Source: Escherichia phage vB_Ec-M-J. From it: 64,000 nucleotides of DNA. The position numbers and the translations under genes were made by a program. The notes beneath the pieces were generated by a model, which ran no database searches, had not been told where the DNA came from, and saw only the letters and a list, made by a program, of their open reading frames with translations. Shown here piece by piece: positions 18,225 through 37,442 of the stretch (its first letter is position 1; each line of letters opens with the position of its first letter). The stretch lies in sequence record OQ718158.1; one strand, given 5' to 3'.

Positions 18225-18596
18225 ATGAGTTATCGTGAAATATTTTCGATCATTACTATTATTGTGTTTAGTTTAGGTTCTTTGATTTGGTTATTGTATT
18301 ACTTCTGTGTAACCCCAGTATATAATATGCTAAATTCAGTACGCTCTGATGTTGGTATTGTTTCTTTTATTATCTTCATGGCATATTATATGCTAAGTAT
18401 CACAGGTTTGGTTTTGGTTGTTATCTTTGACCTTGGACCGAATCAAGATGGTATGGAGGTGTGGGAATTGATAACGATGTTTGCATGTATGATACCTGCA
18501 TTTGGTGTATGTGCTGGTGTATTTTATGGGTTATGTAAAGGTGTGAACTACTTAAAAAATATCCACAATACTATTCGTAAAAAACGTATGTTATAA
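18225..18596 (+). CDS. small multi-pass membrane protein, family B paralog 7
   Basis: 123-aa hydrophobic ORF; followed by bidirectional hairpin. Confidence 0.55.
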   Translation: MSYREIFSIITIIVFSLGSLIWLLYYFCVTPVYNMLNSVRSDVGIVSFIIFMAYYMLSITGLVLVVIFDLGPNQDGMEVWELITMFACMIPAFGVCAGVFYGLCKGVNYLKNIHNTIRKKRML

Positions 18597-18603
18597 TAAA
18601 AAA

Positions 18604-18626
18604 TCCAGTACTATAATAGTACTGGA
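18604..18626. terminator. bidirectional hairpin between convergent genes
   Basis: TCCAGTACTATAATAGTACTGGA in A/T-rich context. Confidence 0.55.
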
Positions 18627-18632
18627 TTAATT

Positions 18633-19757
18633 TTAATTATCTAAGCCACCAATTACACTGAACTGTGTGGTAACGTCTGAACTATTATCTATGTAAGTTC
18701 TTCGACCAACATAATATAGTTGTCCTTTTGCTTGAATAAAAGTTACGGTCCCTGTATTGAATGTTATAATATCATTGTATGTAATGTCAGGTGGTAGTGC
18801 TGCTGATAATGCAGTAACAGCACTTAATGCAGCACTAGCACTACCATTTATACCAGCAGCAATACTACCAGTACCATAGAACTTATTATCTTTACCAATG
18901 AATACGTTGGCTGATGCTTGTGTAGCTGATGTTATTGCCTTACCAATTTGGAATGCGGTTCCTATGGTGTATGGTGTGCTCCTGGCTGCGTCTATGCTTT
19001 GTGTATATCCATCCCCTAGCTGACCATTAACTTTGTCACCACATGAGTATAGAGTACCATTGAGGCTGTATATGATCCCACGGTTAGAGAAGCTAACAGC
19101 TTCTGCATTAGTCCATACTGGTGCGGTGTATGAGTTTACACGACTAGCGGTAGTTCCTAGACCTAGTATACCATATGTGTTATCACCACATCCAAACCAT
19201 TGTCCAGAACTGTTTTGATAGAACACTGAACGTTCTGTTGATTCCATGCGTACAGCATCCACAGCACCACTTTTAACGAACGAAGTGGATGAGGATGTAG
19301 TACCAGTACCCAATGCACCATAAGTGTTTGTACCAATCGCATAGATTGATCCTAGTGGTGTCATAACACGTATGCAGTTATATCCCAATTGAACTTTACA
19401 TTCAAATAGGTTGTCCCATATTTCAGGAACAGCAGAAAATAAATTTGTAATTTCGAACCATGATGTTGTCGAACCAGTTAATCCTATACTGCTTTTGTTT
19501 CCTAAAATGAAAACAGTTTTGTCCTTCTTAATTATCCATGATGATAGAAAGCCTATCTCACAGCTATGAACATTTGATTCGATTTGGGTAATATAATACT
19601 TAACGGTGTTATCACCCATAAATGCCGCAGCACCAGATGCAAAAAGGTTTCCAGTTTGTTTATTTAAAATGTAGTTATTGTTTCCATATACACTAACATC
19701 ATAAGAACTTTCTTGTTTTTCGTTCCCATAATCAAATAACAATACGAAAGGTAACAT
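18633..19757 (-). CDS. beta-propeller protein, RCC1-like repeats, divergent leader MLPFVLLFDYGN
   Basis: 374 aa; G/S/T/N-rich; motifs YGALGTG, YGILGLG, NGQLGDG. Confidence 0.75.
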   Translation of the reverse strand: MLPFVLLFDYGNEKQESSYDVSVYGNNNYILNKQTGNLFASGAAAFMGDNTVKYYITQIESNVHSCEIGFLSSWIIKKDKTVFILGNKSSIGLTGSTTSWFEITNLFSAVPEIWDNLFECKVQLGYNCIRVMTPLGSIYAIGTNTYGALGTGTTSSSTSFVKSGAVDAVRMESTERSVFYQNSSGQWFGCGDNTYGILGLGTTASRVNSYTAPVWTNAEAVSFSNRGIIYSLNGTLYSCGDKVNGQLGDGYTQSIDAARSTPYTIGTAFQIGKAITSATQASANVFIGKDNKFYGTGSIAAGINGSASAALSAVTALSAALPPDITYNDIITFNTGTVTFIQAKGQLYYVGRRTYIDNSSDVTTQFSVIGGLDN

Positions 19758-19834
19758 GATAAAATCTCCTTGTGTTATACTTTATTTAATCATTTTATAA
19801 TGTACAATTTTACAGCGATTTAATTGAGGTACTC

Positions 19835-20485
19835 ATGAATAAAAGAAGTAAGTTCTATCAAGAATATTTCACTAAACAGAAACGATTCACAAAAAAATAC
19901 TTTACATCATCCCACCGACCAGTTGCAAGTTACAAACGTCCTAATACTAACTATCTTACTGGTGGCAAGTTTAGTGCAAAGTTCGAATTACTTATGCGTG
20001 AAAAGAATATCAAGATGCATTACGCAGAGACAAGAAAAAACTCATCAATTATTTGTTCTGATTTTCTTGAGTACGGTTGCTTAACTTATAAATTCAATGA
20101 TGTATATTTGTATATTGATGTTGATTGTAACAGTACTCGTATGTTTGAGATTTCAATTCACCCAAATCACAACCGTTATATAAACATTAACTTGGTTGAT
20201 AAAGTACTGATTGGTATATCTAGTACTGATGGTGGTGGATTTGAATTTATTGCTTCAAAATATGATGAAGATTTCGTACTTTACCCAGTACTTGATGATG
20301 TGAAAGATATTCTCAATTCATTAAAAGGAAGTCAATACAAATTATCTGAAGAACAGCTATTTCAGTACTCACTTATTCATGATGATATCGAGATATACTT
20401 AGAGTGTGCGAGAATCTTGGAGTATCTTTATAATGAACTAACAACAACTGGTAAAGTGACAGCATTCACATTATATAATATGTAA
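19835..20485 (+). CDS. hypothetical protein (plus-strand gene embedded in propeller array)
   Basis: 216-aa ORF flanked by AGTACT hairpins on both sides. Confidence 0.55.
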   Translation: MNKRSKFYQEYFTKQKRFTKKYFTSSHRPVASYKRPNTNYLTGGKFSAKFELLMREKNIKMHYAETRKNSSIICSDFLEYGCLTYKFNDVYLYIDVDCNSTRMFEISIHPNHNRYININLVDKVLIGISSTDGGGFEFIASKYDEDFVLYPVLDDVKDILNSLKGSQYKLSEEQLFQYSLIHDDIEIYLECARILEYLYNELTTTGKVTAFTLYNM

Positions 20486-20493
20486 AAGAAAAA

Positions 20494-20512
20494 GCCAGTA
20501 CATAGTACTGGC
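20494..20512. terminator. bidirectional hairpin between convergent genes
   Basis: GCCAGTACATAGTACTGGC flanked by A and T runs. Confidence 0.55.
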
Positions 20513-20518
20513 TTTATA

Positions 20519-21652
20519 TTAAACTGGTGGAGAATTATATGGCTCAAATTTATAAGTTGTCGTAGCAGTACCAGCAATGGCGTTGTTAGCTAGTATGTAC
20601 ATAGTCCTATAGTCGATTACTACCACAGTAATACTACCACCAAAAGCATAGTCTGTTATGTTATTAGTGTTGAATGGTAAATTAGATGAACTGGTCCATG
20701 TATTAGCTGTTGTGCTATTTGTACCATTGGAATAGCCGACACTAGATGCACCAGTTGTCCATAAGTTTCCATCATTGAACAACGATACATGGTTAGCTGT
20801 ATATGATTTATTAGGTATAGAACTATCAATTGGCGTATTCCAAACTTTAGTAACCCATGTTGTGACGGCTGTATTATTAGTAACACCATTACCTAACGAA
20901 CCATTTATTGGTATACCTCTTATATAAGAAGTGTTAGTACTAGGGTCAACATATCCAAATGTATATGTATCAAATGCAAATTGAAAACAATCAGAACTCG
21001 GTAATGTGTACAGTAATGTATATGAAGACGTGATTATTGATGAATTTGTACCGTTCACGCCTTGGTATAAAATACCACTACCCAATATTTGATTATTATT
21101 TTTTGTTATAGCAGTCATAGATGGATATGTTTTTACTTCACGCACATCATTAGTTACATATGTTTGTGTTGATAATGCAACATTACTACCATTACCAATA
21201 ACACCTGTATTTGCACCGCTTCCATAAAGTGAACCATCATTCAAAAGTACCATTGTGGCATTACTATTTCCAGTAATTGTTTTAATATTACTAACATCCA
21301 CCGCAGCAAATACAGTTGATGTTAAATCAGTGAAACGTGTATAATGTGATGTTGTGCCATTGATTGGTGTCGCAAAACCAGAATACAAAATTCTATTTTC
21401 TTTGGTAATAAGGAATGTTCCAGTAACACCGTTTGAATGGATATCAATAATATTATCGCCCATTAATACCCAATCACTTACGAATGTTGTACCAGCACCC
21501 AACCCATATGTCGTATTGTATCCACGTCCATACACTCTACCATCACTGAGTAATGTTACCACACATTGACCACCACCACCAAGGATAACTTTTTGGATAG
21601 TACTCTTTACTTTTATATTCCCGTACTTAACCATTCTTGCAAAAGGTAACAT
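20519..21652 (-). CDS. beta-propeller protein, RCC1-like, leader MLPFARMVKYGN
   Basis: 377 aa; conserved leader and upstream cassette with AAGGAGG RBS. Confidence 0.8.
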   Translation of the reverse strand: MLPFARMVKYGNIKVKSTIQKVILGGGGQCVVTLLSDGRVYGRGYNTTYGLGAGTTFVSDWVLMGDNIIDIHSNGVTGTFLITKENRILYSGFATPINGTTSHYTRFTDLTSTVFAAVDVSNIKTITGNSNATMVLLNDGSLYGSGANTGVIGNGSNVALSTQTYVTNDVREVKTYPSMTAITKNNNQILGSGILYQGVNGTNSSIITSSYTLLYTLPSSDCFQFAFDTYTFGYVDPSTNTSYIRGIPINGSLGNGVTNNTAVTTWVTKVWNTPIDSSIPNKSYTANHVSLFNDGNLWTTGASSVGYSNGTNSTTANTWTSSSNLPFNTNNITDYAFGGSITVVVIDYRTMYILANNAIAGTATTTYKFEPYNSPPV

Positions 21653-21696
21653 AATTCCCTCCTTTATTCTTTATACTATATTTAATCAAAAAGAAA

Positions 21697-21715
21697 AGCC
21701 AGTACTCTGTACTGG
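21697..21715 (-). terminator. inter-cassette terminator hairpin of propeller array (representative)
   Basis: GCCAGTACAGAGTACTGGC followed by TTTTCTTTTT on minus strand; same design between most paralogs. Confidence 0.6.
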
Positions 21716-21722
21716 CATTATT

Positions 21723-22883
21723 TTAAATTGGTGAATCTTCAACAAATATAGTACTAGCAGTACCACCAGATACTAGGTTAGTACCACTTGAATATATTTT
21801 GTTTCCATCTGTCATATATGTTTTACCATAGCAACTTTGGATTTTAACATCTTTGAAATTCAAATCAGGAGTAATAGATTTAGTGTAAGTTAATACGTTA
21901 GTAGTTGAACCTGTACTTAATTGTCCATAGTATGAAGTCGCTGAGTTATTACCAGCAACGTATACACCTGTGTCAGTAATAACAAAGTTAGAGTAATATC
22001 CGTACCCATATCCTATATCTAATATATTTCCTTGTGGTTGATTTGCCACAACAGTTGTCAATATGTTGGTTGATGCTGCTGTATTAGTAGCAGCCTGTCC
22101 ATATGATTGGTCACCACCAGTATACACAGTAACAACAGACGTACTATTGTTTCTAGCAATACCTTGAACCATACCATTAACAGTACTTATAAATGCTATA
22201 GTACTAACAGTTGCTGGTAATCTATCTGATAATGCGAATACATTATAAAAACTCACGGTTGAAGTACTGTTAGTATCACCCTTAACTTCACCTGTGTAAT
22301 ATAGTCTACCACTTTCGGCAATAAACGAACACATGTTTATACCTGCAATAATCCTTTTCGGAACCGCACCACTTGGTATAATTGATTGTACTAAAGTAGA
22401 GAAACTGTTAGAATAAGAAGCATTCCCAAGCTGCCCTCCTGTGTTATAACCACCACTCCAAATTGTCCCATTACTCATAAGTATTGAAATGAAGTTATTC
22501 CCTAGTGATATTTCTGAAATTGTTCCTTGGGAATTAACTTGATTAATAACAGTTTGCATAGAAGTCCATGCATTAACAGATGATGTACCCATACACACAT
22601 TGTATTGTCGCCCTGTGTATTGATATGTACCATCTGATTTGTGAATCATTGTAGCATACTGACCACACCATACATCAATGACATCCGATGCAGTTACTGT
22701 CCATGATGTTCTGGTTGTATTGTCTCCTAAACCCAACTGACCACTTGAATTGGAACCACGGGTATATAATTTACCATTACTACCCAATACCATAACCCAG
22801 TTATACCCTGCAACTAATTTTTTAATGGCAGCAGGGGATGGTGCAATGTTCCCGTAATCAAACAATCTTACAAAAGGTAACAT
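21723..22883 (-). CDS. beta-propeller protein, RCC1-like, leader MLPFVRLFDYGN
   Basis: track ORF trimmed to MLPF start (AAGGAG RBS); motifs SGQLGLGDN, GGQLGN. Confidence 0.8.
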   Translation of the reverse strand: MLPFVRLFDYGNIAPSPAAIKKLVAGYNWVMVLGSNGKLYTRGSNSSGQLGLGDNTTRTSWTVTASDVIDVWCGQYATMIHKSDGTYQYTGRQYNVCMGTSSVNAWTSMQTVINQVNSQGTISEISLGNNFISILMSNGTIWSGGYNTGGQLGNASYSNSFSTLVQSIIPSGAVPKRIIAGINMCSFIAESGRLYYTGEVKGDTNSTSTVSFYNVFALSDRLPATVSTIAFISTVNGMVQGIARNNSTSVVTVYTGGDQSYGQAATNTAASTNILTTVVANQPQGNILDIGYGYGYYSNFVITDTGVYVAGNNSATSYYGQLSTGSTTNVLTYTKSITPDLNFKDVKIQSCYGKTYMTDGNKIYSSGTNLVSGGTASTIFVEDSPI

Positions 22884-22896
22884 TTTTTTCTCCTTA

Positions 22897-24045
22897 TTAT
22901 ATTGATGGCATATCCAACACATATGAGTTGCTAGTAATTGATGAATATGTAGAATTTAAACCTGTACTATAAACATAATCACCTGCCCATAAGAATGTTC
23001 TATCCAATGTTGTATGTATTTCAATATCATCATATGATGATAATGATATTTGTGCTAGTGTATATGTAGTAGCATCAATGTTTGAACCAATACCCAAAGT
23101 ACCATTGTATTGTGATTGGGAGTTTTGACCAGTTGCATATATACCAGATTTGGTTATTAAATGCTGATTGTACATTGACGTACCTTTAAACAATTTAATT
23201 AAATTAGAGTTAGGTGTAGTTATTGGTGCAGGAGCAAGTATTGTTGTTGTAGTGCCACCATCACCTAATTGTCCATATCGTTGGTAACCACCAGCGTATA
23301 CCTGTTTAACTCCAGCCGTAGTTTCAATAATAAAGAATGAACCATAGCCAGTAGTATTAAAGTCTATAATTTTATTTGTACTCAAACCAACATTATATCT
23401 AGTAAATGTTGTTGCATTTGCTGAACCACCAGCATTCCCACCTACCATTTGCCCACTATAATAAAATGCTCCAGTACTGTCAGTATAAGCCATACAGTTC
23501 TCACTACCATAGATTTTTACTGGTGTACTGGGGAAACTAGAGGTTATATTCACACATGTATTATATTTTGCAGTAGTTCCAGTAATTTCACCATTGTTGT
23601 TTTGCCCAATTACCCAAACTGTGTCATCCGAACGTATAGCCATTGAGCTATAAAACGAGGATACAAATTGTTTAATAAAGGAACCAGGGAGAGAAGTAAG
23701 CATACTATTGATTTGTGCACTCACATTGGTCCATGTATTCACAACTGAATTGACACCTGCGGCTGCACCTGAACCAGAACTCCACCATGATTCATCATTC
23801 TTTTTAATCAATGTACCATTAGCAGAGCAATAAACATCAGCAACTGAACTATTAACTAATATCCATGCCCTCGCTGCTGTTGTATTACCAGTACCTAGCT
23901 GTCCTGCTGCATTACTACCCTTAGCATATAAATCTCCATTCTGCGTTAAAAGCATAGCATGTTGGTATCCAGTTGACAATTTCTTTATTTTTGGTAATGC
24001 TGGTGCTTCATTTCCATAATCAAACATTCTAACAAAAGGTAACAT
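22897..24045 (-). CDS. beta-propeller protein, RCC1-like, leader MLPFVRMFDYGN
   Basis: 382 aa; motifs AGQLGTGN, YGQLGDGG. Confidence 0.8.
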   Translation of the reverse strand: MLPFVRMFDYGNEAPALPKIKKLSTGYQHAMLLTQNGDLYAKGSNAAGQLGTGNTTAARAWILVNSSVADVYCSANGTLIKKNDESWWSSGSGAAAGVNSVVNTWTNVSAQINSMLTSLPGSFIKQFVSSFYSSMAIRSDDTVWVIGQNNNGEITGTTAKYNTCVNITSSFPSTPVKIYGSENCMAYTDSTGAFYYSGQMVGGNAGGSANATTFTRYNVGLSTNKIIDFNTTGYGSFFIIETTAGVKQVYAGGYQRYGQLGDGGTTTTILAPAPITTPNSNLIKLFKGTSMYNQHLITKSGIYATGQNSQSQYNGTLGIGSNIDATTYTLAQISLSSYDDIEIHTTLDRTFLWAGDYVYSTGLNSTYSSITSNSYVLDMPSI

Positions 24046-24116
24046 AATTCCCTCCTTTATTCATTATACTATATTTAATCAAAAAGAAAAGCCAGTACTC
24101 AAGTACTGGCATTATC

Positions 24117-25295
24117 TTAAAATTGTGGTAGTTGGTATTCAGTTAATGTCCATGTACCTGTAACTGTTCCATTCGGGGACATCCCTGTGTAGTATAATTT
24201 GCCACCAGCGTATACAAATAATGCATTGTCATTAGCAGCAACCATCGAAGTTTCTGGATCAAATACTACAGAAATTGGTAATTGTGATTGAACAAATACT
24301 GACGCATTGGTAGTTGAATTGTTACCAAGTTGTCCATAGTTGTTATACCCAGTACTGAAAATACGGCTACCATTTCTATATAATATACCCCTAGTACTTT
24401 GTGAATGTAGATCTATAAATTCAAAATCGGAAACATTAGTTAATTGCAAATAAGTACTTTGTGGAGTTAGTGCTGTCTTATTCGTATTGGTTGTAACTCC
24501 ATTACCTAATTGACCGTAAAATTGTGATCCTAAACCATATAGCGGATAAGTACCATCTGAATAAAGAACTATACCCAACATCTTATTATGTGAAAGAATA
24601 TCTATTGGATATTTCCCTGTACCAAAGTCGTATCTAGTCCAAGACGTTAATGTAGCCGACGCTGCCCCAGTTAACAAAGTACCAGTGGTAGTTGTGCCAC
24701 ATCGCCACGCTGAATTATCATTCTTAATTATCCAAGTTGGACTATTAAAAAATGAACTAACCTTTTTAACATTAATATTGACCTGGGTTAATTCTGTAAG
24801 CATTGATGAACTTGAACCCAACTCATATGTGGAGTTATTACCTATTGCATAAAGAACCCCACTATTTGTTAGTACAAACAAATTACGAACATTAGGATAT
24901 ATCTCTTTAATATCATCAATATTAATACCCGAAAAATAAGAAGTACATTCCACAAAGGTAGTACTTTGTACTTCACTCGATGCACCTGTCCAGGTGTTCC
25001 ATCCTGCATAATAAAATTTATTATCATTAGTCTGTACTAAGCTATATGAAGAGTTCCTAGTGCACCAGAAATTTTTCACATTTTGCATTAATCGAACCCA
25101 TGATGTCTGTGTTGTAGTATTACCCAGTCCGAAAATACCAGCATTGTTTCCACCGATACCCCACAAATCACCGTTACTATACTGTAGCATCAATGTATTG
25201 TTGGTGAACGCTGATGGTGCTTGCATTTTAATTACATTAGCTGATGGTGCAGGTTTAATATTCCCGTACTTAACCATTCTTGCAAAAGGTAACAT
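24117..25295 (-). CDS. beta-propeller protein, RCC1-like, leader MLPFARMVKYGN
   Basis: 392 aa; motifs YGQLGNGV, YGQLGNNS. Confidence 0.8.
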   Translation of the reverse strand: MLPFARMVKYGNIKPAPSANVIKMQAPSAFTNNTLMLQYSNGDLWGIGGNNAGIFGLGNTTTQTSWVRLMQNVKNFWCTRNSSYSLVQTNDNKFYYAGWNTWTGASSEVQSTTFVECTSYFSGINIDDIKEIYPNVRNLFVLTNSGVLYAIGNNSTYELGSSSSMLTELTQVNINVKKVSSFFNSPTWIIKNDNSAWRCGTTTTGTLLTGAASATLTSWTRYDFGTGKYPIDILSHNKMLGIVLYSDGTYPLYGLGSQFYGQLGNGVTTNTNKTALTPQSTYLQLTNVSDFEFIDLHSQSTRGILYRNGSRIFSTGYNNYGQLGNNSTTNASVFVQSQLPISVVFDPETSMVAANDNALFVYAGGKLYYTGMSPNGTVTGTWTLTEYQLPQF

Positions 25296-25370
25296 ATATT
25301 TTTCCTCCTTTATTCATTATACTATATTTAATCAAAACGAAATGCCAGCACTCAAGTACTGGCATTATTG

Positions 25371-26561
25371 TTATAGTTGTCTTGGAGTATCAAGTACATA
25401 TCTATTTGTACTAGGACCACCATCATCATAAGTTCCGGTTGAATATATATTTTTCATATCAGCAGTTAGGAAAGTACGTAACGACCCTCGATATATTTTT
25501 ATTTTATCATACATAGAATATGTTATTTCTGACGGCAATGGACATGCAGTAAATTTACCAATGGTAACATTAGAACCAACACCCAATGAACCAGCATAAC
25601 TACTCGCATTTAAACCTGTTGCATATACACCAGAACTCGTAACTAGTATACTAGATTGTGCTGGGTATCCAGTATGAATTGAATACAAAGTACCGGGTGG
25701 TAAGGTTGTACTATTATTTCCTAATACTGCTCGTGCTGTACTAGACGTAGTGTTATTACCCCATGCCCCATTATTGGCGTTCCCACCCACTAGGAACTGA
25801 CGTGCTCCTGTACTTGGATTCTCCACTAAAGCACTGACTGCACCAATTGTACATACAACATATTGTAATGTTTTTGTATATGTTGTACTTGGCTGATATA
25901 AAGTATATTGATTGTATGGAGTCCATGTATCAGTAGTACTTATACCTGATGTACTACCACCAATATATAAATTATTTTGTGTATCATAAAACATTACACA
26001 GCTATTTGTTGACTGTATTCGTGCAATATCAACATTAGGCGTGACAGCTTTTACAAATGATCCATCTGTTATTTGCTGAGTACTACCAGTACCATCAGCG
26101 AATTGTCTAGCCCCACTCCAACCAGTACTCCATATTGTATTATTATCCATTAAGAAAGTAAACCAAGTAGTACCTGCATACATCTGTTTAATTGAAGTAC
26201 CTGAACTTTGTGTGTACAAATTTTCAATATATTGGTTATAACTTAAAAATGATGTAGTACTAGTTTCTAAACCAATATGACTACCATATCCACAATAAAA
26301 ATAATTTAAGTCCTTATCTTGAACTAACAAAGTTCCTTGTGTCATCCAGCAATCTTTGACATTTTCTCTAATTAATGTCCACGACCTTACTGCATTATTA
26401 TTTCCGCGACCGAACTTCCCATAACTATTATTTCCTCGTGCGTATAGTTGACCGTCAGTATAAAGTACAACCACATCAGTATCAGTTGGTATTATTTTCT
26501 TAATTAGAAGAGGTTCAGGTGTGATATTCCCATAATCAAACAATCTAACAAAAGGTAACAT
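25371..26561 (-). CDS. beta-propeller protein, RCC1-like, leader MLPFVRLFDYGN
   Basis: 396 aa; conserved leader and cassette. Confidence 0.8.
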   Translation of the reverse strand: MLPFVRLFDYGNITPEPLLIKKIIPTDTDVVVLYTDGQLYARGNNSYGKFGRGNNNAVRSWTLIRENVKDCWMTQGTLLVQDKDLNYFYCGYGSHIGLETSTTSFLSYNQYIENLYTQSSGTSIKQMYAGTTWFTFLMDNNTIWSTGWSGARQFADGTGSTQQITDGSFVKAVTPNVDIARIQSTNSCVMFYDTQNNLYIGGSTSGISTTDTWTPYNQYTLYQPSTTYTKTLQYVVCTIGAVSALVENPSTGARQFLVGGNANNGAWGNNTTSSTARAVLGNNSTTLPPGTLYSIHTGYPAQSSILVTSSGVYATGLNASSYAGSLGVGSNVTIGKFTACPLPSEITYSMYDKIKIYRGSLRTFLTADMKNIYSTGTYDDGGPSTNRYVLDTPRQL

Positions 26562-26631
26562 ATTTTCCTCCTTTATTCATAATACTATATTTAACCAAAA
26601 AGAAAAGCCAGTACTTGATACTGGCGTAATG

Positions 26632-27774: not shown

Positions 27775-27850
27775 AATTCCCTCCTTTATTCATTATACTA
27801 TATTTAATACAAAAAAGAAAAGCCAGCACTCAAGTACTGGCATTTTAATT

Positions 27851-28999: not shown

Positions 29000-29070
29000 A
29001 TTTCCCTCCTTTATTCATTATACTATATTTAATTCAAAAAGAAAAGCCAGTATCAAGTACTGGCATTATG

Positions 29071-30180: not shown

Positions 30181-30190
30181 ATTTCTCTCC

Positions 30191-31321
30191 TTAATTTAAT
30201 AATGCCCCTGGCAAATCCACTTTGACGAATTGTGCATATGCTGAGGAATTTTGATCAAAGTTTGGTCCCAATCCATAAAATGAGCTAATGCCGTCTTCAT
30301 TTGTGTATATGATATAAACGTTCTTTACATCATTTCCGCATATAAATCGAATGTCTTTCGTTTGTGTTCCCGCTGGAACATTACGAAGGTTCACAACGCC
30401 ATTACTTGCATTGTTATCAGCCGACGCAATTGGTAATTGATTTTGACCATATTGACCACGCATATTTTTTGCATCTAAACCAAACACAGTATCTGATACC
30501 GCACCAACTTTCAAAAATGAACCAAAACTATTATTGAATGACTTTGGAAATGTACCACTATAAACACTTCTCCCATCTGATAATACCGCTGAACTGAATT
30601 TCCCGCTATTCGATATGGCAAATTCATTGTAAGGAAGTGTACCCATTTTGGTATATACAGAATATGAATTAGTGGAAGTATTATCAATAATCTTATTACC
30701 ATTATATCCAATACCATACTGGTATCCGTCTGCATCTTGAACTATACACAAAGGACCACTTGGGGTTTGTGTCAACGAAACAACACGTTCAACTTGTATA
30801 TCACCAAATGTATTTCTTCGCCATGTTCTATCTATTATAGTACTAGTATTACCCAAAGATAATGCCACACTATATAATAGATTGTTTTCAGTAAAAATGG
30901 CAACATAATATGCGTGGTTAATAACTTGCTTCATCCCAGCATCAATAACTTCCTGTGGAATATGATCAGTAACATCCAACCAATCAAGGTTAGATGATGC
31001 AATATCTGGAGTACTGAATTTGTCAAATCTAGTTGAGCCACAAACTAGCACTCTATCATCATTTGTCAAAGCCACTGTGCTAGTCTGCATATTAGAACTG
31101 AATGATTTAACATTACTAATGTTAGACTTGTACCAACCCTTATCAGCAGCACCCACCGTGAATCCGGTTCCCATTGATCCACTTGTACTTGTACCATAAG
31201 CCCACATCTCACCACTATATGTTAGTGCCATACAGTGGCTTCCATTTGCTTGGAAATCCTTTATACCAGTGGGAGCAACCACTGTATTCCCATAATCAAA
31301 CATTCTAACAAAAGGTAACAT
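30191..31321 (-). CDS. beta-propeller-like protein, leader MLPFVRMFDYGN
   Basis: 376 aa; same leader; variant upstream cassette. Confidence 0.75.
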   Translation of the reverse strand: MLPFVRMFDYGNTVVAPTGIKDFQANGSHCMALTYSGEMWAYGTSTSGSMGTGFTVGAADKGWYKSNISNVKSFSSNMQTSTVALTNDDRVLVCGSTRFDKFSTPDIASSNLDWLDVTDHIPQEVIDAGMKQVINHAYYVAIFTENNLLYSVALSLGNTSTIIDRTWRRNTFGDIQVERVVSLTQTPSGPLCIVQDADGYQYGIGYNGNKIIDNTSTNSYSVYTKMGTLPYNEFAISNSGKFSSAVLSDGRSVYSGTFPKSFNNSFGSFLKVGAVSDTVFGLDAKNMRGQYGQNQLPIASADNNASNGVVNLRNVPAGTQTKDIRFICGNDVKNVYIIYTNEDGISSFYGLGPNFDQNSSAYAQFVKVDLPGALLN

Positions 31322-31398
31322 AACTAATTCTCCAAATTCAAATAATTATAATGTATTTACAAAAAAAATACCAGCACATATTTCAGTACTGGTATCAT

Positions 31399-32580
31399 TT
31401 ATGGTAAAATGATAGATTGTAACGAACTCATACCCAATGCTGGAACACTAGCCTGTGGTGCTGGAGAATTCAATTTTGGTGATGAAACCGCATATGACAT
31501 TCCTGAACCCAAATCTGGATCAAAAACTACAGCACAATAATTCCCACTATATATAAGTCCATTCTTGTATCCTTGTGCACTTTGAATGCATTTCGTGAAC
31601 GTACCAATATCTGTAGTGGCATTTATTAAGTTCCTCCCACGATAACCGCAGGTGTATATGAAATTATCATCGCCTATGTACATACTAGAATCCCCAGAAG
31701 AACTACATAGATACGACATATAAGCACGCATGTTTTTAGGAGCAACTGACAATGTACCTGCATAGAATTTATTATTCGAACCCGTAATATCACCATCACC
31801 CAATGCACCAAAACTTCCCCAGCCAGTACCATAATATCTCTTATCACTCAAGAATATAATACAGTTGTTATTACACATCTTGACTTGATATATCAATGAA
31901 GGATCAACCCCAGGGAATGATTCAGTGTATGTTAGAACAGCCAGATCAGTACTAGCATTACATTGATGATATGTATTAGTACCAGCGGACAAGATTGTTC
32001 CATTAGCTAACAGAATTCTCGCAGTACCAGTACCAGCAGTACAAGCAACTGCACTTCCTGCACTTCCGGTGTATATTTGTCTGAAAGTAAAGAAACCAAC
32101 AGTTTTACTTCCCTGCCCACTCCAACCAGTATTATCAACTCCACACGCCCATACTGAACCATCTTGCATGATCATCATTACACCAAAGCGTTCTATTGAA
32201 ATATAAACAATCTTCGTTGTATCAACTGCACTAAATCTAGAAGTTATATCAGTCCATACCTTAACACTTACCGCCGTCGCACTGGAAGTAGGATCTTCAC
32301 CAGCTATCATTATCCTCCCATTGTTAGTAAGATACATTGTCTGACTATAACCAGTACTACAAAACTTAACACTATCAGTCTCTGGAACTTTTAACCACTC
32401 GTTGTAACGTGTTACGTTAGTGTTATTACCTAACTGATAATAGTTATTCATCCCAGATACATATAACACACCATCCTTTATTAAACTATAAGTCGCACTA
32501 TAGTCACTACAGGTATAACGTGTACCCACAGGTCGCTCAACGACGTTCCCATAATCAAACATTCTAACAAAAGGTAACAT
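31399..32580 (-). CDS. beta-propeller protein, RCC1-like, leader MLPFVRMFDYGN
   Basis: 393 aa; motif YYQLGNNT. Confidence 0.8.
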   Translation of the reverse strand: MLPFVRMFDYGNVVERPVGTRYTCSDYSATYSLIKDGVLYVSGMNNYYQLGNNTNVTRYNEWLKVPETDSVKFCSTGYSQTMYLTNNGRIMIAGEDPTSSATAVSVKVWTDITSRFSAVDTTKIVYISIERFGVMMIMQDGSVWACGVDNTGWSGQGSKTVGFFTFRQIYTGSAGSAVACTAGTGTARILLANGTILSAGTNTYHQCNASTDLAVLTYTESFPGVDPSLIYQVKMCNNNCIIFLSDKRYYGTGWGSFGALGDGDITGSNNKFYAGTLSVAPKNMRAYMSYLCSSSGDSSMYIGDDNFIYTCGYRGRNLINATTDIGTFTKCIQSAQGYKNGLIYSGNYCAVVFDPDLGSGMSYAVSSPKLNSPAPQASVPALGMSSLQSIILP

Positions 32581-32653
32581 AATAAAATCTCCGTAATTAA
32601 ATTATATAGTATTTACAAAAAATACCAGTACATATTTCAGTACTGACCTATTA

Positions 32654-33775
32654 TTAAAAGGGCAACGGTAACTCAGTAAAAGTACTTACGTCCGGTAAAC
32701 CATACATTGAATTAGCATCACCACAGTAATACCACTTCGTAGAATCATGTACCACCGATAAACGCTGTGCACATAACACTTCCTGTATGTCATTAAACAC
32801 CATCGGGACTAACTCATATGTATCCGCAAATGAAGATACACCACCACTCGCATGAAAAGTATTCGTCCCAGCATAAAATAACTGATTAGTGTTCTTACCC
32901 ACAGCAAATGTCATCAATATCCCATCATTCTCCCATAAAGAAGAAAACTTATCAACACTACCAGAAAGCTCTGTGTAAGTACTCGTAATGGCACTCGCAG
33001 CCGCCGCATTACCCATCTGTTTATTCAAGTTCTGTCCAGCAATAAAATATCTCGTGCGTGCACTAGAATCAGTATATAATAACCCAGTGTTCGTAGTCAT
33101 CATTCCAATGTCCTTAATCGTCATACCAGTCTGTGAATAACTTAGATACGAAGTTAAACTACCATTATTACCCAACGAACCGTTATCACTCATGCCACAA
33201 CGATGTAATATACCACTTGTATCAACGTAGATAGTACTAACTAAACTCGTATACAACTCTTGTACATTATTCGCAATAAACACAGCAGTCGCCTTATTAC
33301 TAACCCCACCAAATGATAGGTTATTATCAAATCCCTTAGCGTATAATTGATTATTAGTAGTCAATAATCCAATCGTGAAATAAGACATTTTCATATCCCT
33401 TACTGTACTCAAATCTACTGCCCCAAATTGGTGCGTAACATCTGTCCATGTGAAAATCTGTGCACTACCAACACCACCCGTTTCAAACCATTTGTCACCA
33501 CAGTACAATATGCGATTACCCTTAGTAAAGATAACTGTTACCAATCCACTACCACACGCAAACTTTACATCACTTCTAACCTTCGTCCAATCAAGTACAT
33601 AGGTAGTGGTGTTATTACCTATACCTAACTTGCCATAACGGTTATAACCACGCACCCACAAATCACCACTCTTAGTAATTAATAGTAATGCGTCTCCTGT
33701 ACTTATTATTCGAAATCCCGAACTAGGATCAGGTACTTCATTTCCATAATCAAACATTCTAACAAAAGGTAACAT
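32654..33775 (-). CDS. beta-propeller-like protein, leader MLPFVRMFDYGN
   Basis: 373 aa; conserved leader and cassette. Confidence 0.75.
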   Translation of the reverse strand: MLPFVRMFDYGNEVPDPSSGFRIISTGDALLLITKSGDLWVRGYNRYGKLGIGNNTTTYVLDWTKVRSDVKFACGSGLVTVIFTKGNRILYCGDKWFETGGVGSAQIFTWTDVTHQFGAVDLSTVRDMKMSYFTIGLLTTNNQLYAKGFDNNLSFGGVSNKATAVFIANNVQELYTSLVSTIYVDTSGILHRCGMSDNGSLGNNGSLTSYLSYSQTGMTIKDIGMMTTNTGLLYTDSSARTRYFIAGQNLNKQMGNAAAASAITSTYTELSGSVDKFSSLWENDGILMTFAVGKNTNQLFYAGTNTFHASGGVSSFADTYELVPMVFNDIQEVLCAQRLSVVHDSTKWYYCGDANSMYGLPDVSTFTELPLPF

Positions 33776-33848
33776 ATATCCCTCCTTTATTCATTATACT
33801 ATATTTAATCAAAAAAGAAATGCCAGTACTCAAGTACTGGCATAGTAT

Positions 33849-34976
33849 TCAAAAAGGTAAATCAATTTGCTTAGTAATAATAGTATCTAACGGTATTGAA
33901 CACAATGAGAAATTCTTTCCACCCGTATTTTCAGGATTATATCCATTCATCCATACATTATTACCTTCGTAAAATGTATTCCAGTATAAAGACCCACTAT
34001 ATCGTGTATTCGAATTGAACGATGTAAAATTGAATTCTTGAAATGCTGTAAAATATGGAAGGGAACTTGAACTACTTCCCGTAAATGGGGTATGCCCAGT
34101 TGCTATTAGTTTGTTTGTATCTGCATTAATTAAAAATACAACACTAGTCGAATAGTCCAACGAATCAGGATGATATATATTACTCATATCACCTATAGTA
34201 AAACCAACATCAAAAACTTTACTATGTGCACCACTACCAGCAAAAGTAGTTCCAGTTGCATATATTTTATTATCAGATGTTATCATTACAAAACCAACAC
34301 CAGAAACAAAACTGCATTTTATATCATAAGATATATCATCAAACAACGGAACAAATGTGGTTGCATCACCCGATGTTGCTTTAACTTGAAAGCTGTTATT
34401 TGAACCTGAACCATATACAGTTCCATCGTTTTTAATCTTAAACAATGTATCGCCAAGGTAACCGCCAAATATATTATCCACATTAGTGTCAAGTACAGTC
34501 CACGCTGAAACATAATTTTTATGTCCTAAACCTAATGTACCACTTCGATTCCATCCTCTTCCATAAAGTGTTCCGTCTTTCATTAATATAAATGCTGTAT
34601 AACCACATAACATTTTTTTAATTTGGGTAACATCTATACCAGTGAAATACACAGCCCAGTCAGTATATCCTTGTTGGAAAGTATTAGAATTCGTGAATGC
34701 ATATGTTGAACCTGAACCATATATTTTATCACCTTTAATAACAACGGAAAACGATCCTAACCATAAGTCATCAACTTCAGTTGTGATTTGTTGAACTGCT
34801 CCTAACGATACAAACTGTGTACTTAAACCCGCATTATAGTTTGAATCTTCACCGTGTGCATATACAGTGCCATCTTGCATTAGAAACATTTCAAGAGTGT
34901 AACTAACAACACTTTTCTTTATATTATTAACTTCGATTATATTCCCATAATCAAACATTCTAACAAAAGGTAACAT
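33849..34976 (-). CDS. beta-propeller protein, RCC1-like, leader MLPFVRMFDYGN
   Basis: 375 aa; motifs YGRGWNRSGTLGLGH, YGSGSNNS. Confidence 0.8.
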   Translation of the reverse strand: MLPFVRMFDYGNIIEVNNIKKSVVSYTLEMFLMQDGTVYAHGEDSNYNAGLSTQFVSLGAVQQITTEVDDLWLGSFSVVIKGDKIYGSGSTYAFTNSNTFQQGYTDWAVYFTGIDVTQIKKMLCGYTAFILMKDGTLYGRGWNRSGTLGLGHKNYVSAWTVLDTNVDNIFGGYLGDTLFKIKNDGTVYGSGSNNSFQVKATSGDATTFVPLFDDISYDIKCSFVSGVGFVMITSDNKIYATGTTFAGSGAHSKVFDVGFTIGDMSNIYHPDSLDYSTSVVFLINADTNKLIATGHTPFTGSSSSSLPYFTAFQEFNFTSFNSNTRYSGSLYWNTFYEGNNVWMNGYNPENTGGKNFSLCSIPLDTIITKQIDLPF

Positions 34977-35045
34977 AATTCCCTCCTTTATTCATTATAC
35001 TATATTTAATCAAAAAAAGCCAGTATCAAGTACTGGCATATTAAT

Positions 35046-36194
35046 TTACTGCAAAAATGACATATCGACTTCTGTATAATTAAGAACGTTCTGTCCAGAA
35101 ATACCACCCATTACTACTATTGCAAGGCCACAATAATATAATTTTCCAGTATCAGTAAGTATAAGTGAACCAGATGGGGTGCGTACCAAATTACAAGAGG
35201 TATTAAACGAAGTATATGAAGGAGTATAGGAGTACTGATTAATATTATTACCAACACCTAATTGACCAGACGCGTTGCTTCCAGATGCATAAAGTACTTC
35301 ATCACCTTTAACTATATGTGATGCCATGTTACCAACACAAGTATATAAACTATAAACACCTGCACTCAATAATGTGGGGGTTTTATATTGTATATCAGTA
35401 GAAGAGGAAGTACCACCTGTACCAAATTCGTTCCCATATTGTGCACCGAACTGTTTACCACAAGCGTACAAATTATTATCCGATTTGATAAAAAATGTAC
35501 TCTGATAACTTACATTAAAATCTATAACATCCGAAGAAATCATCGTCACCCCAGTAATAGAAGTTTGATTACCCGTGCCCAACTGGTAGTAATAGTTAAA
35601 ACCACAACCCCATAAAGTATTATCTTCTCGCAAATAAATGTTACCAACTGCCTTTTTAACCGAAGTTATAGTATCTACTCTTTTGAATGTGTTAAAAGAA
35701 TTAATGTTTGTGCCATCACCAAATGATGATATGTTCGATATATTGTTAGCTCCACAACAATACAATGTACCATCGTTTGTTATCAAATTCACCTTCATAT
35801 CATAAAAACTACTCATGTATTTTATATCAGAAACATTAATACCACTTGATGTTATCCACGTAGTACAGTCCGTCCACAAAGTTTTTCTATCAGTTACACC
35901 AGTGAATGCCTTCGTGTTACCAGTGATAAAAACTTTTCCAGTACCTTTCTCTTCATACAATTGACAATCACTACTGTTATCTTCCAATAGAACTCGTTTA
36001 ACATTCTCCGCACAAAGAATAAATTTACTCGATGCTACACCTGTACCAGTACCCCAATTCGTCGCAGAAGATGCATACAACTTATCAGTATAAGTATCAT
36101 GAAGATACATAGAATCACTGGAATATATTTTAAAACGCCCAGAGTTGGTAGGTGCTTCATTCCCATAATCAAACATTCTTACAAAAGGTAACAT
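35046..36194 (-). CDS. beta-propeller protein, RCC1-like, leader MLPFVRMFDYGN
   Basis: 382 aa; motifs YYQLGTGN, SGQLGVGN. Confidence 0.8.
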   Translation of the reverse strand: MLPFVRMFDYGNEAPTNSGRFKIYSSDSMYLHDTYTDKLYASSATNWGTGTGVASSKFILCAENVKRVLLEDNSSDCQLYEEKGTGKVFITGNTKAFTGVTDRKTLWTDCTTWITSSGINVSDIKYMSSFYDMKVNLITNDGTLYCCGANNISNISSFGDGTNINSFNTFKRVDTITSVKKAVGNIYLREDNTLWGCGFNYYYQLGTGNQTSITGVTMISSDVIDFNVSYQSTFFIKSDNNLYACGKQFGAQYGNEFGTGGTSSSTDIQYKTPTLLSAGVYSLYTCVGNMASHIVKGDEVLYASGSNASGQLGVGNNINQYSYTPSYTSFNTSCNLVRTPSGSLILTDTGKLYYCGLAIVVMGGISGQNVLNYTEVDMSFLQ

Positions 36195-36206
36195 ATTTCC
36201 TCCAAA

Positions 36207-37112
36207 TTATTTAAAAACATACTGCGTATTAACACGTGTCCCGTTGTCGTAACCAAGTACGTAAAATATTTCAGCACTATTATTAGAGCCAAATAATGCA
36301 CCAGTACTATTACTCAACGTTGTATTGATAGCTAATGGTATCCATTTGTTTTGCTCGGCATCATATTTTAATAAATTTAATGCACCATAAGATACTGCAT
36401 ATATACCTTTGTCATATCTATTGTAAATTATCTTACTAGGGTTAGCTCCACCAACTGCTGCCATTCTTGACCAAACCGCACTCTCTATGTGATATTTTTG
36501 TGCAGGAGTAGATCCTTGTCCTGTAAAATATATGTAAGTACCATCAGTGCACATATCACCACCACCATTGTTTGTTGTATTCCCAGTAGTACCTAACGAT
36601 GTCCATGTATTAGTACTCGGCGTATAACTATATAATGCAGTATTAGACGGTGAACCCCACAAATATATCTTATCCCCTGTAGTAATCATCTTACTATATA
36701 CTGCCTGGTTAGGTTTGCCAACACTTGTATTATTCAGTGTCCATGTATCAGAGCTTATGTCATATACATAAAAATTATTATTAGCAACATTCGCTGCACC
36801 TAAACCACCGAACAAATATATTTTTCCTTGATAGGCACACAATGCACTTCCATAGGTGGATACTGGTGGTGATGATAATTGTACCCATATTCTAGAATTT
36901 AAATTAAAACTCCATAACTGATTATCCTGGTTCGAAGTATTCATTATACCACCAAATATATAAGCAGTATTTCTTGATGCATCATACGTATAACCAAAGT
37001 TATTTCGTGCTGAAGGTACTGGTGATGTGGTAAATTGAGTTCGTATACCACCATTTGGGGCTGGTAATGGAGCTTCATTCCCATAATCAAACATTCTAAC
37101 AAAAGGTAACAT
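36207..37112 (-). CDS. Kelch-type beta-propeller protein with the same leader MLPFVRMFDYGN
   Basis: track ORF trimmed to MLPF start; Kelch-like blades YIFGG, IYLFGG, IYLWG, YIYFTG. Confidence 0.75.
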   Translation of the reverse strand: MLPFVRMFDYGNEAPLPAPNGGIRTQFTTSPVPSARNNFGYTYDASRNTAYIFGGIMNTSNQDNQLWSFNLNSRIWVQLSSPPVSTYGSALCAYQGKIYLFGGLGAANVANNNFYVYDISSDTWTLNNTSVGKPNQAVYSKMITTGDKIYLWGSPSNTALYSYTPSTNTWTSLGTTGNTTNNGGGDMCTDGTYIYFTGQGSTPAQKYHIESAVWSRMAAVGGANPSKIIYNRYDKGIYAVSYGALNLLKYDAEQNKWIPLAINTTLSNSTGALFGSNNSAEIFYVLGYDNGTRVNTQYVFK

Positions 37113-37159
37113 ATTTCCTCCTTTATTCATTATATCATATTTACCCCATAAACAAAACC

Positions 37160-37188
37160 CTTGACATCCTTTCAGTACTGGTGTACTA
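37160..37188 (+). promoter_or_regulatory. sigma70-type promoter for the plus-strand small-gene array
   Basis: TTGACA-N17-TACTAT in divergent region between Kelch gene start and array. Confidence 0.55.
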
Positions 37189-37214
37189 TAGAAGGAATAC
37201 AAGGAGAACTACAC

Positions 37215-37442
37215 ATGACAGCTACACTTAAGTACTACATTAATACTCTAAATGAACTAGAGTACGGTAAGTTTCTCGCGGATAGTTCGTGGCTAATTGA
37301 GCTAAAAACACATAACAGTACTGGATGTAACCTTATGCTGAACAATGCACTTGATACCCTTGTAGTGAGTATTTTACACAGCACCATCTGCGGGGATAGC
37401 AATAAACAATTATCAAAAATCTTAGTACTGGTAGCTCTATGA
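37215..37442 (+). CDS. small protein, EYY-family-like (first gene of plus-strand array)
   Basis: track ORF trimmed to ATG after AAGGAG; N-terminal KYYINTL; behind TTGACA-N17-TACTAT promoter. Confidence 0.5.
   Translation: MTATLKYYINTLNELEYGKFLADSSWLIELKTHNSTGCNLMLNNALDTLVVSILHSTICGDSNKQLSKILVLVAL

Follow-up and report, generated by a model that had tools for sequence, protein, structure and literature searches.

An N-terminal leader and a repeated regulatory junction shared by an array of beta-propeller genes in an Asteriusvirus jumbo phage

Several described phage systems resemble parts of the locus reported here, an array of leader-tagged beta-propeller genes in Escherichia phage vB_Ec-M-J (OQ718158.1), of which we analysed one stretch of 64,000 nucleotides (nt), hereafter the window. 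The internal proteins of T4 (IPI, IPII, IPIII and Alt) are diverse proteins that carry a short N-terminal leader, which is sufficient for entry into the particle, and their set varies between related phages. PeSL cassettes of T4-type phages are modules of about 100 base pairs (bp), consisting of a stem-loop terminator and a promoter, that flank non-essential genes in plastic regions, where whole open reading frames (ORFs) are inserted, deleted or replaced between close relatives within the bounds of the module (Arbiol et al. 2010, PMC2839356). In KP32-type Klebsiella podophages, deletion of a 29-amino-acid N-terminal ‘conserved peptide’ of the secondary receptor-binding protein (RBP2) abolishes its incorporation into virions, and the same peptide docks a foreign endosialidase onto virions (PMC6872550, PMC13352976). 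RCC1 propellers form the distal part of tail-fibre proteins in the Pseudomonas phages Littlefix and PollyC, and likewise of gp40 of PVP-SE1, which lies at the end of its tail-fibre module.

Arrays of RCC1-like paralogues are themselves already known. The phAPEC6 paper describes eleven such proteins, the CBB paper lists the copies in 121Q and PBECO4, and some of the paralogues were detected by mass spectrometry (MS) in these two studies. By megablast, the window belongs to the genus Asteriusvirus, a group of jumbo coliphages (about 350-385 kb) that includes 121Q, PBECO4, phAPEC6, BF17 and EJP2; the flanks of the array are 92-98% identical to relatives, and coverage of the array itself is patchy. 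Asteriusvirus records label the array genes “regulator of chromosome condensation”, “DNA condensation protein”, “GTPase regulator” and the like. A shared leader, its Kelch and lectin carriers, per-gene cassettes and cassette exchange are not mentioned in the phAPEC6 and CBB papers. We have not found described elsewhere the features on which we report: a clade-wide leader on Kelch, lectin and other virion proteins, its placement outside the fold, a junction cassette for each gene and exchange bounded by that junction.

A six-frame scan of the window for M-L-P-F-x-x-x-x-x-Y-G-N found 15 leader-headed ORFs between positions 18633 and 37112, all on the minus strand (Table 1; the upper coordinate of each gene is the first base of the leader start codon). 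A preliminary description, made from the letters of the DNA, had located the array correctly on this strand but had counted 16 genes, 15 RCC1-like and one Kelch-like; both types are present, and Pfam assigns RCC1-type repeats to 14 of the 15 proteins and Kelch repeats to gene 1. Its size range of 301-398 amino acids was right at the lower end, the proteins measuring 301-396 amino acids from the leader methionine. Upstream alternative starts are possible in two of the listed ORFs (399 and 331 amino acids), and the leader methionine is the likely start because an AAGGAGG ribosome-binding site sits immediately 5' of the leader ATG. Pairwise identity of the bodies is merely 20-31%, whereas the leader is almost invariant. 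It reads MLPF[VA][RL][ML][FV][DK]YGN, so the near-identical 12-residue leader described earlier is indeed present on all 15 copies; the copy starting at 19757 has leucine at position 6. The earlier statement that 33 nt of leader DNA are identical in most copies was too strong: five copies match exactly, five have one mismatch and one has three, and the other four differ more (ARMVKYGN in three, VLLFDYGN in one). Conservation is nevertheless far above chance, with these 11 matches against 0.00 in shuffled sequence.

The leader is also found outside the window and outside the genus, across the Rak2-like jumbo clade but not beyond it. Array members of phAPEC6 all start MLPF[AG]RM[VIL]KYGN. GAP32, of a different genus, has a single RCC1-like protein, GAP32_001, which starts MLPFSRIIQYGN, and the adjoining GAP32_002, a 210-amino-acid non-propeller “virion structural protein”, starts MLPFARIFRYGD. 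Ten leader-tagged ORFs of CBB map to gene numbers 247, 536, 537 and 548-554, with bodies that are Kelch propellers, Laminin_G_3/ConA-like lectins or unassigned; CBB also holds tagged ORFs with no mapped gene number, for example a glycine-rich one of 254 amino acids. Two degenerate-DNA scans of IMG/VR recovered long leader-headed ORFs only on contigs of 348-378 kb, namely 121Q, Serratia phage BF, GAP32, CBB, Yersinia phage fHe-Yen9-04 and four metagenomic jumbo contigs, and the remaining matches, about 20, are short or internal, as chance predicts. Further tagged bodies from IMG/VR include more Laminin_G_3 proteins, glycine-rich proteins and small bodies of no assigned function. Fusion of the array's two body types also occurs: on metagenomic jumbo contigs (L013 8416(-), L042 1903(+) and L058 140(+)), one chain of 667-676 amino acids has a single leader, then an RCC1-like propeller, then a Kelch propeller.

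Among 77 distinct leaders, leucine 2 is found in 77, arginine 6 in 68, methionine, leucine or isoleucine at position 7 in 76, a hydrophobic residue at position 8 in 71, glycine 11 in 74 and asparagine 12 in 76. The clade-wide peptide is MLPF-x-R-[MLI]-hydrophobic-x-Y-G-N, with the reservation that positions 1, 3, 4 and 10 were set by the search pattern, so that their invariance weighs less. In Asteriusvirus the leader codons are fixed against body usage (CCT in 15/15 copies versus 29% in bodies, GGG in 13/15 versus 11%). Between genera the codons vary (CCA/CCT, AGA/AGG/CGT, GGA/GGG/GGT; outside Asteriusvirus CCA, AGG, CGT, GGA and GGT) while the residues are kept, so that selection acts on the peptide across the clade; judging from codon usage, the leader DNA is additionally homogenised within Asteriusvirus. 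The RCC1 and lectin bodies have homologues in Vequintavirinae (about 145 kb), namely in PVP-SE1 (gp40), PBES 02 and GAP31, and these lack the leader. The ConA-like bodies of PBES 02 (L028 5995-6645) and GAP31 (L029 5953-6603) have a common N-terminus of their own, M(N/E)EML(M/L)xG, which might be an analogous tag.

Searches with longer N-terminal profiles were dominated by other features or yielded little. A 42-amino-acid profile run against a database of 5.8 billion proteins gave 13 candidates, with two trivial matches; the best 150 matches to a 45-amino-acid HMMER profile start at profile positions of about 8-22 and are long multi-repeat proteins, the RCC1 blades dominating this search so that it does not probe the leader. 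A literature search of incomplete coverage returned no match to the leader string. Several tagged genes in relatives deserve comment. Two BF17 array members (L024 12545-13696 and 16163-16900) have phenylalanine for the otherwise invariant tyrosine at leader position 10 (MLPFARMVKFGN), and one of them is a 245-amino-acid glycine-rich non-propeller protein that is also present in 121Q and phAPEC6 and absent from the window. In the phAPEC6 record, three leader-tagged ORFs of 244-396 amino acids are unannotated (L001 2434, 6063 and 7325), and the annotated starts of phAPEC6 gp002 (L001 3506-4810) and of JP4_581 lie too far upstream, which puts about 27-36 spurious residues before the leader.

The bodies behind the leader are beta-propellers. 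We modelled one RCC1 paralogue (gene 12) and the Kelch protein (gene 1) with AlphaFold (AF2). Gene 12 gave a predicted local distance difference test score (pLDDT) of 87.9 and a predicted template modelling score (pTM) of 0.87, and Foldseek matched this seven-bladed propeller best to UVR8 (E = 2.5e-24, template modelling score (TM) 0.77), followed by RPGR, HERC2 and RCC1. The gene 1 model (pLDDT 88.3, pTM 0.87) matched six-bladed Kelch domains of NS1-BP (TM 0.75/0.79), LZTR1 and KLHDC2. In Pfam, 13 of the 14 RCC1-like proteins exceed the gathering scores of PF00415 or PF13540; gene 4 (32654-33775) matches only PF25390, at 56 bits against a cut-off of 150 bits, and aligns with its paralogues. 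Gene 1 matches PF13415, PF13964 and PF01344 in addition to PF24681 (cut-off 50 bits), and has a weak match, below the Pfam cut-off, to the NanM Kelch family PF24996. Both folds and both repeat types anticipated in the preliminary description were thus recovered. The bodies consist to about 40% of serine, threonine, asparagine and glycine, with isoelectric points (pI) of 4.8-8.6 and 5-7.6% lysine plus arginine. They appear to be binding-type propellers and are apparently monomeric. Searches of the PDB by sequence and by fold returned no solved phage structure with array proteins in it.

In both models the leader is the sole low-confidence stretch. Residues 1-10 have a pLDDT of 48-49 and form a coil with no strand; the first strand, a conserved I-K-K-hydrophobic stretch at residues of about 20-25, begins at residue 20 of the RCC1 model and residue 24 of the Kelch model. 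These predictions suggest that the leader is a flexible coil outside the propeller fold. The idea, raised earlier, that it is the N-terminal velcro strand that closes the propeller was rejected, as the leader is a coil with a pLDDT below 50 in both models and also heads non-propeller bodies, lectins among them.

Tagged proteins are found in virions of relatives. In phAPEC6, the tagged proteins gp003, gp005, gp006, gp007, gp009, gp010, gp549 and gp551 were detected by virion MS, which amounts to 8 of 13 tagged ORFs compared with 54 of 538 others (Fisher p = 1.4e-5). Eight of the ten mapped tagged ORFs of CBB were detected (247, 536, 537, 548, 549, 551, 552 and 553), with one to eight peptides each and coverage of up to 51%. 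GAP32_001 was detected in GAP32, where GAP32_002 is annotated as a virion structural protein, and JP4 virions contained JP4_577, JP4_581 and JP4_582, all leader-headed. The relatives of gene 9 include two detected proteins, phAPEC6 gp005 and the close relative JP4_582. Tagged proteins are therefore virion-associated in four published proteomes of relatives, which is strong but correlational evidence, and the earlier remark that no virion genes lie in the array was misleading. Of six MS-detected CBB proteins with no counterpart in GAP32, five are leader-tagged, and the CBB authors regarded the MS-detected, CBB-specific set as the place to seek whisker genes. Long hairs whose genes are unassigned cover the head and tail (sheath) of 121Q, phAPEC6 and CBB; an inner body of undefined composition is a further feature of 121Q and phAPEC6.

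Most tagged genes in the window are preceded by conserved regulatory DNA. Twelve of the 15 genes are self-contained, with a hairpin terminator and T-run after the preceding stop codon, the motif [GT]TAAATA and a strong ribosome-binding site, then the ATG and leader. The conserved hairpin (GCCAGTACT..AGTACTGGC plus T-run) is followed by GATTAAATATAGTATAATGAATAAAGGAGG or by the variant GTAAATAC...GGAG. The TAAATA hexamer lies at -31 to -38 in 12 of the 12 free-standing units, and an AAGGAGG-type ribosome-binding site lies 5-8 nt 5' of the leader ATG in every copy. Together with 36 nt of leader, the terminator, late-type promoter and ribosome-binding site form a junction of about 110 bp that is nearly identical among units. 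The coding strand has few TAAATA sites in the rest of the window (8 in 45 kb), and terminator-like sites number 21, against 7.2 +/- 2.7 expected from shuffles. A sigma-70 promoter before each gene was considered and rejected, as such sites are not enriched (81 versus 97.7 expected) and the junction cassettes hold no -35 element at proper spacing. The genes starting at 36194, 30180 and 22883 lie 10-13 nt behind their upstream neighbours, with which they are presumably co-transcribed. In phAPEC6, a [TA]ATAAATA motif lies 36-53 nt 5' of the major capsid, baseplate and many other structural genes, and the CBB paper names ATAAATA as the putative late promoter for structural genes in CBB and GAP32, alongside a gp55-like late sigma factor. 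Because the array shares this motif with those genes, it is probably transcribed late.

Comparison with relatives indicates that whole cassettes are exchanged. Relative to BF17, the closest relative at the locus, 11 of the 15 cassettes have orthologues of at least 89% identity, one of them relocated, and four have none (at most 32%), although EJP2 and CMSTMSU hold a gene that matches one of the four at 95-98% identity. The CMSTMSU array is full of frameshifts and was used solely for best-hit identities. Megablast alignment to BF17 gives collinear blocks at 15247-21652, 22846-24119, 25259-27844, 27738-29066, 28964-32580 and 34941-39598, whose internal ends fall at the ATG, about 36 nt into the leader or in the upstream cassette of about 70 nt; the blocks shared with EJP2 end alike. 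This shows that the whole cassette is the unit of exchange, with no breakpoints within bodies. To some extent such block ends are to be expected, because the junction is common to all paralogues. Orthologous cassettes have ratios of nonsynonymous to synonymous substitution (dN/dS) of 0.08-0.25, similar to those of flanking genes, from which it follows that each cassette is under purifying selection, conserved as a functional gene, and that diversity arises by replacement. Clustering of the 65 array proteins of five genomes gives 29 clusters at a minimum identity of 60%, or 36 at a minimum of 80%; each genome holds 9-16 cassette types, and all five have just one cluster in common. The fEgEco12 paper, which compares two phages of one species, independently lists two “chromosome condensation regulators” among the few proteins that diverge strongly. 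The preliminary description had by inference seen a cassette-type hypervariable arsenal in the array and had proposed an alignment of leaders and flanks versus bodies across relatives. The comparison with relatives shows the junction and leader conserved and the bodies swapped whole, so that the claim stands as regards whole-gene replacement, reordering and the 29-36 types; in-place hypermutation is rejected by the dN/dS values.

Taken together, these observations make it probable that the leader is a virion-addressing or docking tag, whether its carriers lie outside or inside the particle. A shared targeting or assembly signal, one of the possibilities raised in the preliminary description, is thus the best-supported reading, the leader being modular over unrelated folds and its carriers being present in four virion proteomes. 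The array itself is best read as a late-expressed, recombining repertoire of binding modules. The 15 genes would be expressed as 12 transcription units, each probably late. The leader peptide, as a flexible extension beyond the folded body, would recruit whatever body follows it into the virion at assembly, thereby causing incorporation, and docking would most likely occur at a common exterior site, for which the hair-like fibres, a capsid decoration site and the tail are candidates. Propellers and lectins on the exterior would then serve as interchangeable adhesins for host-surface ligands. The near-identical junction of about 110 bp could supply the homology for cassettes to be swapped, lost, gained and reordered among co-infecting relatives, in which case it would drive recombination as well as bound it, and because junction homology would let cassettes be exchanged, each phage would hold a different subset of a much larger pool.

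Whether tagged proteins are displayed outside the particle as adhesins is a closely balanced question. We favour the outside because the bodies have lectin-type or propeller binding folds, the serine-, threonine-, asparagine- and glycine-rich composition given above and a neutral-to-acidic pI; because repertoire turnover among near-identical phages is typical of host-range determinants; because RCC1 propellers occur in the tail or tail-fibre proteins of Littlefix, PollyC and PVP-SE1; because the hairs of 121Q, phAPEC6 and CBB have unassigned genes; because a folded seven-bladed propeller would be poorly suited to passage through the tail tube; and because the conserved peptide of KP32 RBP2 gives a direct precedent. 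A more specific version may be entertained only tentatively. In this version, the MLPF peptide of Rak2-like jumbo phages would act as a universal plug that fits a single class of docking site (hairs, capsid or tail), for which a dozen or more monomeric lectin-type heads (RCC1, Kelch and ConA-like) compete, so that each particle bears a mixed, perhaps stochastic, set of adhesins that is re-dealt by junction-mediated exchange.

Several points weigh against the picture of an externally displayed, late-expressed and junction-shuffled repertoire. Association with the virion could come from the bodies themselves, or from abundant late proteins that co-purify, and MS coverage of the tagged proteins in phAPEC6 is just 3-17%. 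The external location is drawn from fold types and from analogy with other phages, and GAP32 has tagged proteins, yet hairs are unreported there. Low AlphaFold confidence is no proof of a free peptide. Late timing is read from the promoter motif, and the junctions (for example 33776-33848) also hold a perfect TATAAT about 17-22 nt before the ATG, with no properly spaced -35 element. Finally, the block ends show the unit of exchange, not that the junction causes exchange.

The alternative that survives best, although we consider it unlikely, is that the leader is a T4-like capsid-targeting sequence (CTS) that binds the prohead scaffold or core, and that the propellers lie inside the head, as part of the inner body or as proteins to be ejected, for example anti-defence effectors. 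Short, identical N-terminal leaders on diverse proteins encoded at a plastic locus follow the same logic as in T4 (T4 head review), the inner body of 121Q and phAPEC6 has an undefined composition that the tagged proteins could fill, these proteins are present in virion proteomes, and the phages encode a T4 gp21-type prohead protease and a scaffold. T4 gp21 prefers L/I-x-Glu sites, with glutamate at P1. No conserved protease site follows the array leader: glutamate 13 is found in 8 of the 77 distinct leaders, and there is no invariant glutamate. Rigid, neutral-pI propellers and lectins of 30-43 kDa are also unlike small, charged, DNA-associated internal proteins, a folded seven-bladed propeller would probably be too wide for the tail tube, and other phages bear lectin-like folds and RCC1 domains on external tail fibres.

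It is improbable that the leader has no addressing role and is instead a folding nucleus, an N-terminal cap, a closing strand or a feature of translation initiation, homogenised by gene conversion, with the bodies reaching the virion by themselves or not at all. Conservation of the Asteriusvirus leader at synonymous sites, against body codon usage, does fit homogenisation at the level of DNA or RNA, and the leader is contiguous with a conserved ribosome-binding site. Against this reading, the leader is a low-confidence coil outside both modelled propellers and heads at least five unrelated body types, non-propellers included; codons change across genera with the peptide retained, and homologous bodies in Vequintavirinae fold and enter virions with no leader.

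We give still less credence to the proposal that the proteins act in the infected cell, taking over host factors or blocking defences, with their detection in virions reflecting carry-over and the leader being a regulatory tag such as a degron or chaperone handle. In its favour, propellers of the RCC1 and Kelch types classically serve as scaffolds for protein-protein interactions, the phages encode Clp-type proteases, and MS coverage in phAPEC6 is low. Against it stand detection in four independent proteomes and coverage that reaches 41-51% in CBB; the late-type promoter is common to the array and to structural genes, and ConA-like lectin bodies point to carbohydrate ligands. Finally, the database label of ‘DNA condensation proteins’ or ‘regulators of chromosome condensation’, under which the proteins would organise the packaged genome, is very improbable, as its support consists of the family name and a speculation of the phAPEC6 authors, while the name derives from eukaryotic RCC1, a Ran exchange factor, when the nearest structure is UVR8 and not RCC1; the composition and neutral-to-acidic pI of the bodies give no DNA-binding character and no support to such a role; CBB and GAP32 fill the same slot with lectins and Kelch proteins; and repertoire turnover among near-identical phages would be unexpected for a genome-packing component.

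How, then, does a virion-addressing leader joined to an exchangeable cassette compare with the systems described at the outset? By analogy, its logic combines the CTS leaders of T4, the shuffling cassettes of PeSL loci and the docking peptides of branched receptor-binding proteins. We place the array outside all three classes, because no sequence relation to them is apparent and because the CTS protease site and the sigma-70 early promoter of PeSL were looked for and not found. The T4 internal proteins resemble the array in having one short leader on a variable set of proteins, and differ from it in leader sequence, in which we see no similarity to MLPF, and in being small. PeSL cassettes share the bounded replacement of whole ORFs; their promoters are strong, sigma-70-like and early, whereas the array junction has a T4-late-like TAAATA, and it runs 36 nt into coding sequence, so that recombination module and protein tag form one unit. 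The KP32 peptide, like the array leader, is a short conserved N-terminal sequence before a variable binding body, and its mechanism is the one that we propose by analogy for the leader. It has a different sequence, belongs to a different phage group, has a T4gp10-like branching domain as its partner and serves depolymerase spikes that are trimeric, each phage having a single secondary protein, whereas the array encodes at least 15 apparently monomeric propellers. We claim likeness of mechanism only, and not membership, because the array bodies are propellers rather than beta-helix depolymerases. Littlefix, PollyC and PVP-SE1 use the same propeller fold in an external tail appendage, but there it is part of long, multidomain, single-copy proteins with anchors of their own (for example a T7-fibre N-terminal domain or Ig-like domains) and no MLPF leader.

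The array is flanked on both sides by runs of small plus-strand genes, convergent on the left and divergent on the right. On the left, 16157-18596 holds seven tandem paralogous ORFs of 104-123 amino acids, predicted to be small multi-pass membrane proteins. CBB repeats the arrangement, with small membrane proteins (L023 12095-13133) followed by a convergent leader-tagged cluster (14197-19465), and because of this likeness the two groups may be linked. On the right, 37439-42201 holds at least 20 tandem small ORFs of 59-78 amino acids, with an N-terminal motif M(N)..KE(Y/F)Y..L and a hydrophobic C-terminal tail ..L(K/L)LI... Beyond them, 42200-44100 is nearly devoid of long ORFs and contains a short tandem repeat at 43284-43392 (period 24/32 nt, about three copies; GGCTAGAC..GGACGGCTAAAC), and a 63-nt unit is repeated 2.1 times (92% matches) at 46329-46458, at the start of the ORF 46346-47020. 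Two larger plus-strand genes sit among otherwise small ORFs of no assigned function: 5542-7053, whose 503-amino-acid product matches families that PHROG labels ‘virion structural protein’ (phrog_20398, E = 8e-245), and 14134-15249, which encodes a 371-amino-acid HNH/homing endonuclease. No tRNA genes were found in the window.

Table 1. Genes, junctions and terminators of the leader-tagged array (positions in the window; aa, amino acids; RBS, ribosome-binding site)
Feature	Position	Strand	Details
Gene 1, leader + six-bladed Kelch-like propeller, 301 aa	36207..37112	-	Pfam PF24681, 94 bits; AF2 pLDDT 88.3; 99% identical to BF17 protein
Gene 2, leader + RCC1-like propeller, 382 aa	35046..36194	-	coupled to gene 1, 12-nt spacer; lacks own promoter and terminator
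Gene 3, leader + RCC1-like propeller, 375 aa	33849..34976	-	no BF17 orthologue (28%); 63% in EJP2
Gene 4, leader + RCC1-like propeller, 373 aa	32654..33775	-	absent from BF17; 95-98% in EJP2 and CMSTMSU
Gene 5, leader + RCC1-like propeller, 393 aa	31399..32580	-	leader scan, Pfam
Gene 6, leader + RCC1-like propeller, 376 aa	30191..31321	-	leader scan, Pfam
Gene 7, leader + RCC1-like propeller, 369 aa	29071..30180	-	coupled to gene 6, 10-nt spacer
Gene 8, leader + RCC1-like propeller, 382 aa	27851..28999	-	BF17 orthologue at another array position
Gene 9, ARMVK-variant leader + RCC1-like propeller, 380 aa	26632..27774	-	83% to phAPEC6 gp005
Gene 10, leader + RCC1-like propeller, 396 aa	25371..26561	-	leader scan, Pfam
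Gene 11, ARMVK-variant leader + RCC1-like propeller, 392 aa	24117..25295	-	at most 31% to anything in the five relatives compared
Gene 12, leader + RCC1-like propeller, 382 aa	22897..24045	-	Pfam; RCC1 copy chosen for structure model
Gene 13, leader + RCC1-like propeller, 386 aa	21723..22883	-	13-nt spacer after gene 12; no close orthologue in relatives compared
Gene 14, ARMVK-variant leader + RCC1-like propeller, 377 aa	20519..21652	-	leader scan, Pfam
Gene 15, divergent leader (MLPFVLLFDYGN) + RCC1-like propeller, 374 aa	18633..19757	-	set apart by plus-strand ORF
216-aa ORF interrupting the array	19835..20485	+	phrog_34359; no Pfam match, no leader; 98% conserved in BF17
Junction 5' of gene 1	37113..37145	-	TAAATATGATATAATGAATAAAGGAGG; late-type TAAATA at -31, RBS
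Junction cassette	34977..35045	-	hairpin 35037-35019 + T-run, TAAATA -32, AAGGAGG
Junction cassette	33776..33848	-	hairpin ATGCCAGTACTTGAGTACTGGCAT (33843-33820) + T-run, GATTAAATATAGTATAATGAATAAAGGAGG
Junction cassette, variant	32581..32653	-	hairpin 32647-32624, GTAAATAC at -35, GGAG
Junction cassette, variant	31322..31398	-	hairpin 31396-31367, GTAAATAC at -38
Junction cassette	29000..29070	-	hairpin 29064-29046, TAAATA -32, AAGGAGG
Junction cassette	27775..27850	-	hairpin 27841-27822, TAAATA -32, AAGGAGG
Junction cassette	26562..26631	-	hairpin 26625-26607, TAAATA -32, AAGGAGG
Junction cassette	25296..25370	-	hairpin 25366-25341, TAAATA -35, AAGGAGG
Junction cassette	24046..24116	-	hairpin 24110-24091, TAAATA -32, AAGGAGG
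Junction cassette	21653..21722	-	hairpin 21716-21698, TAAATA -32, AAGGAGG
Upstream region of gene 15	19758..19834	-	GATTAAATAAAGTATAAC...AAGGAG, TAAATA -31; divergent from plus-strand ORF
Hairpin terminator 3' of gene 14	20491..20515	-	terminator scan
Bidirectional hairpin terminator, convergent array end	18602..18628	.	terminator scan

The “RCC1 / DNA condensation” paralogues of 121Q/Rak2-like phages have been a mis-annotated question since 2013-2020, and a 12-residue tag common to a fold-diverse set of virion proteins offers a testable model of what enters the particle, and where. The junction, in which regulatory and coding DNA are fused, is a clean example of how phage gene cassettes are kept exchangeable. 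Were the tag a docking peptide, it would account for the many alternative adhesins that very large phages carry, would tie repertoire turnover to host range and would provide a short display tag for jumbo phages, like the T4 CTS and the KP32 conserved peptide. Should the universal-plug version also be true, these phages would possess a combinatorial, plug-and-play system of host adhesion that has no described phage equivalent, and the peptide would be a ready display tag for jumbo-phage engineering.

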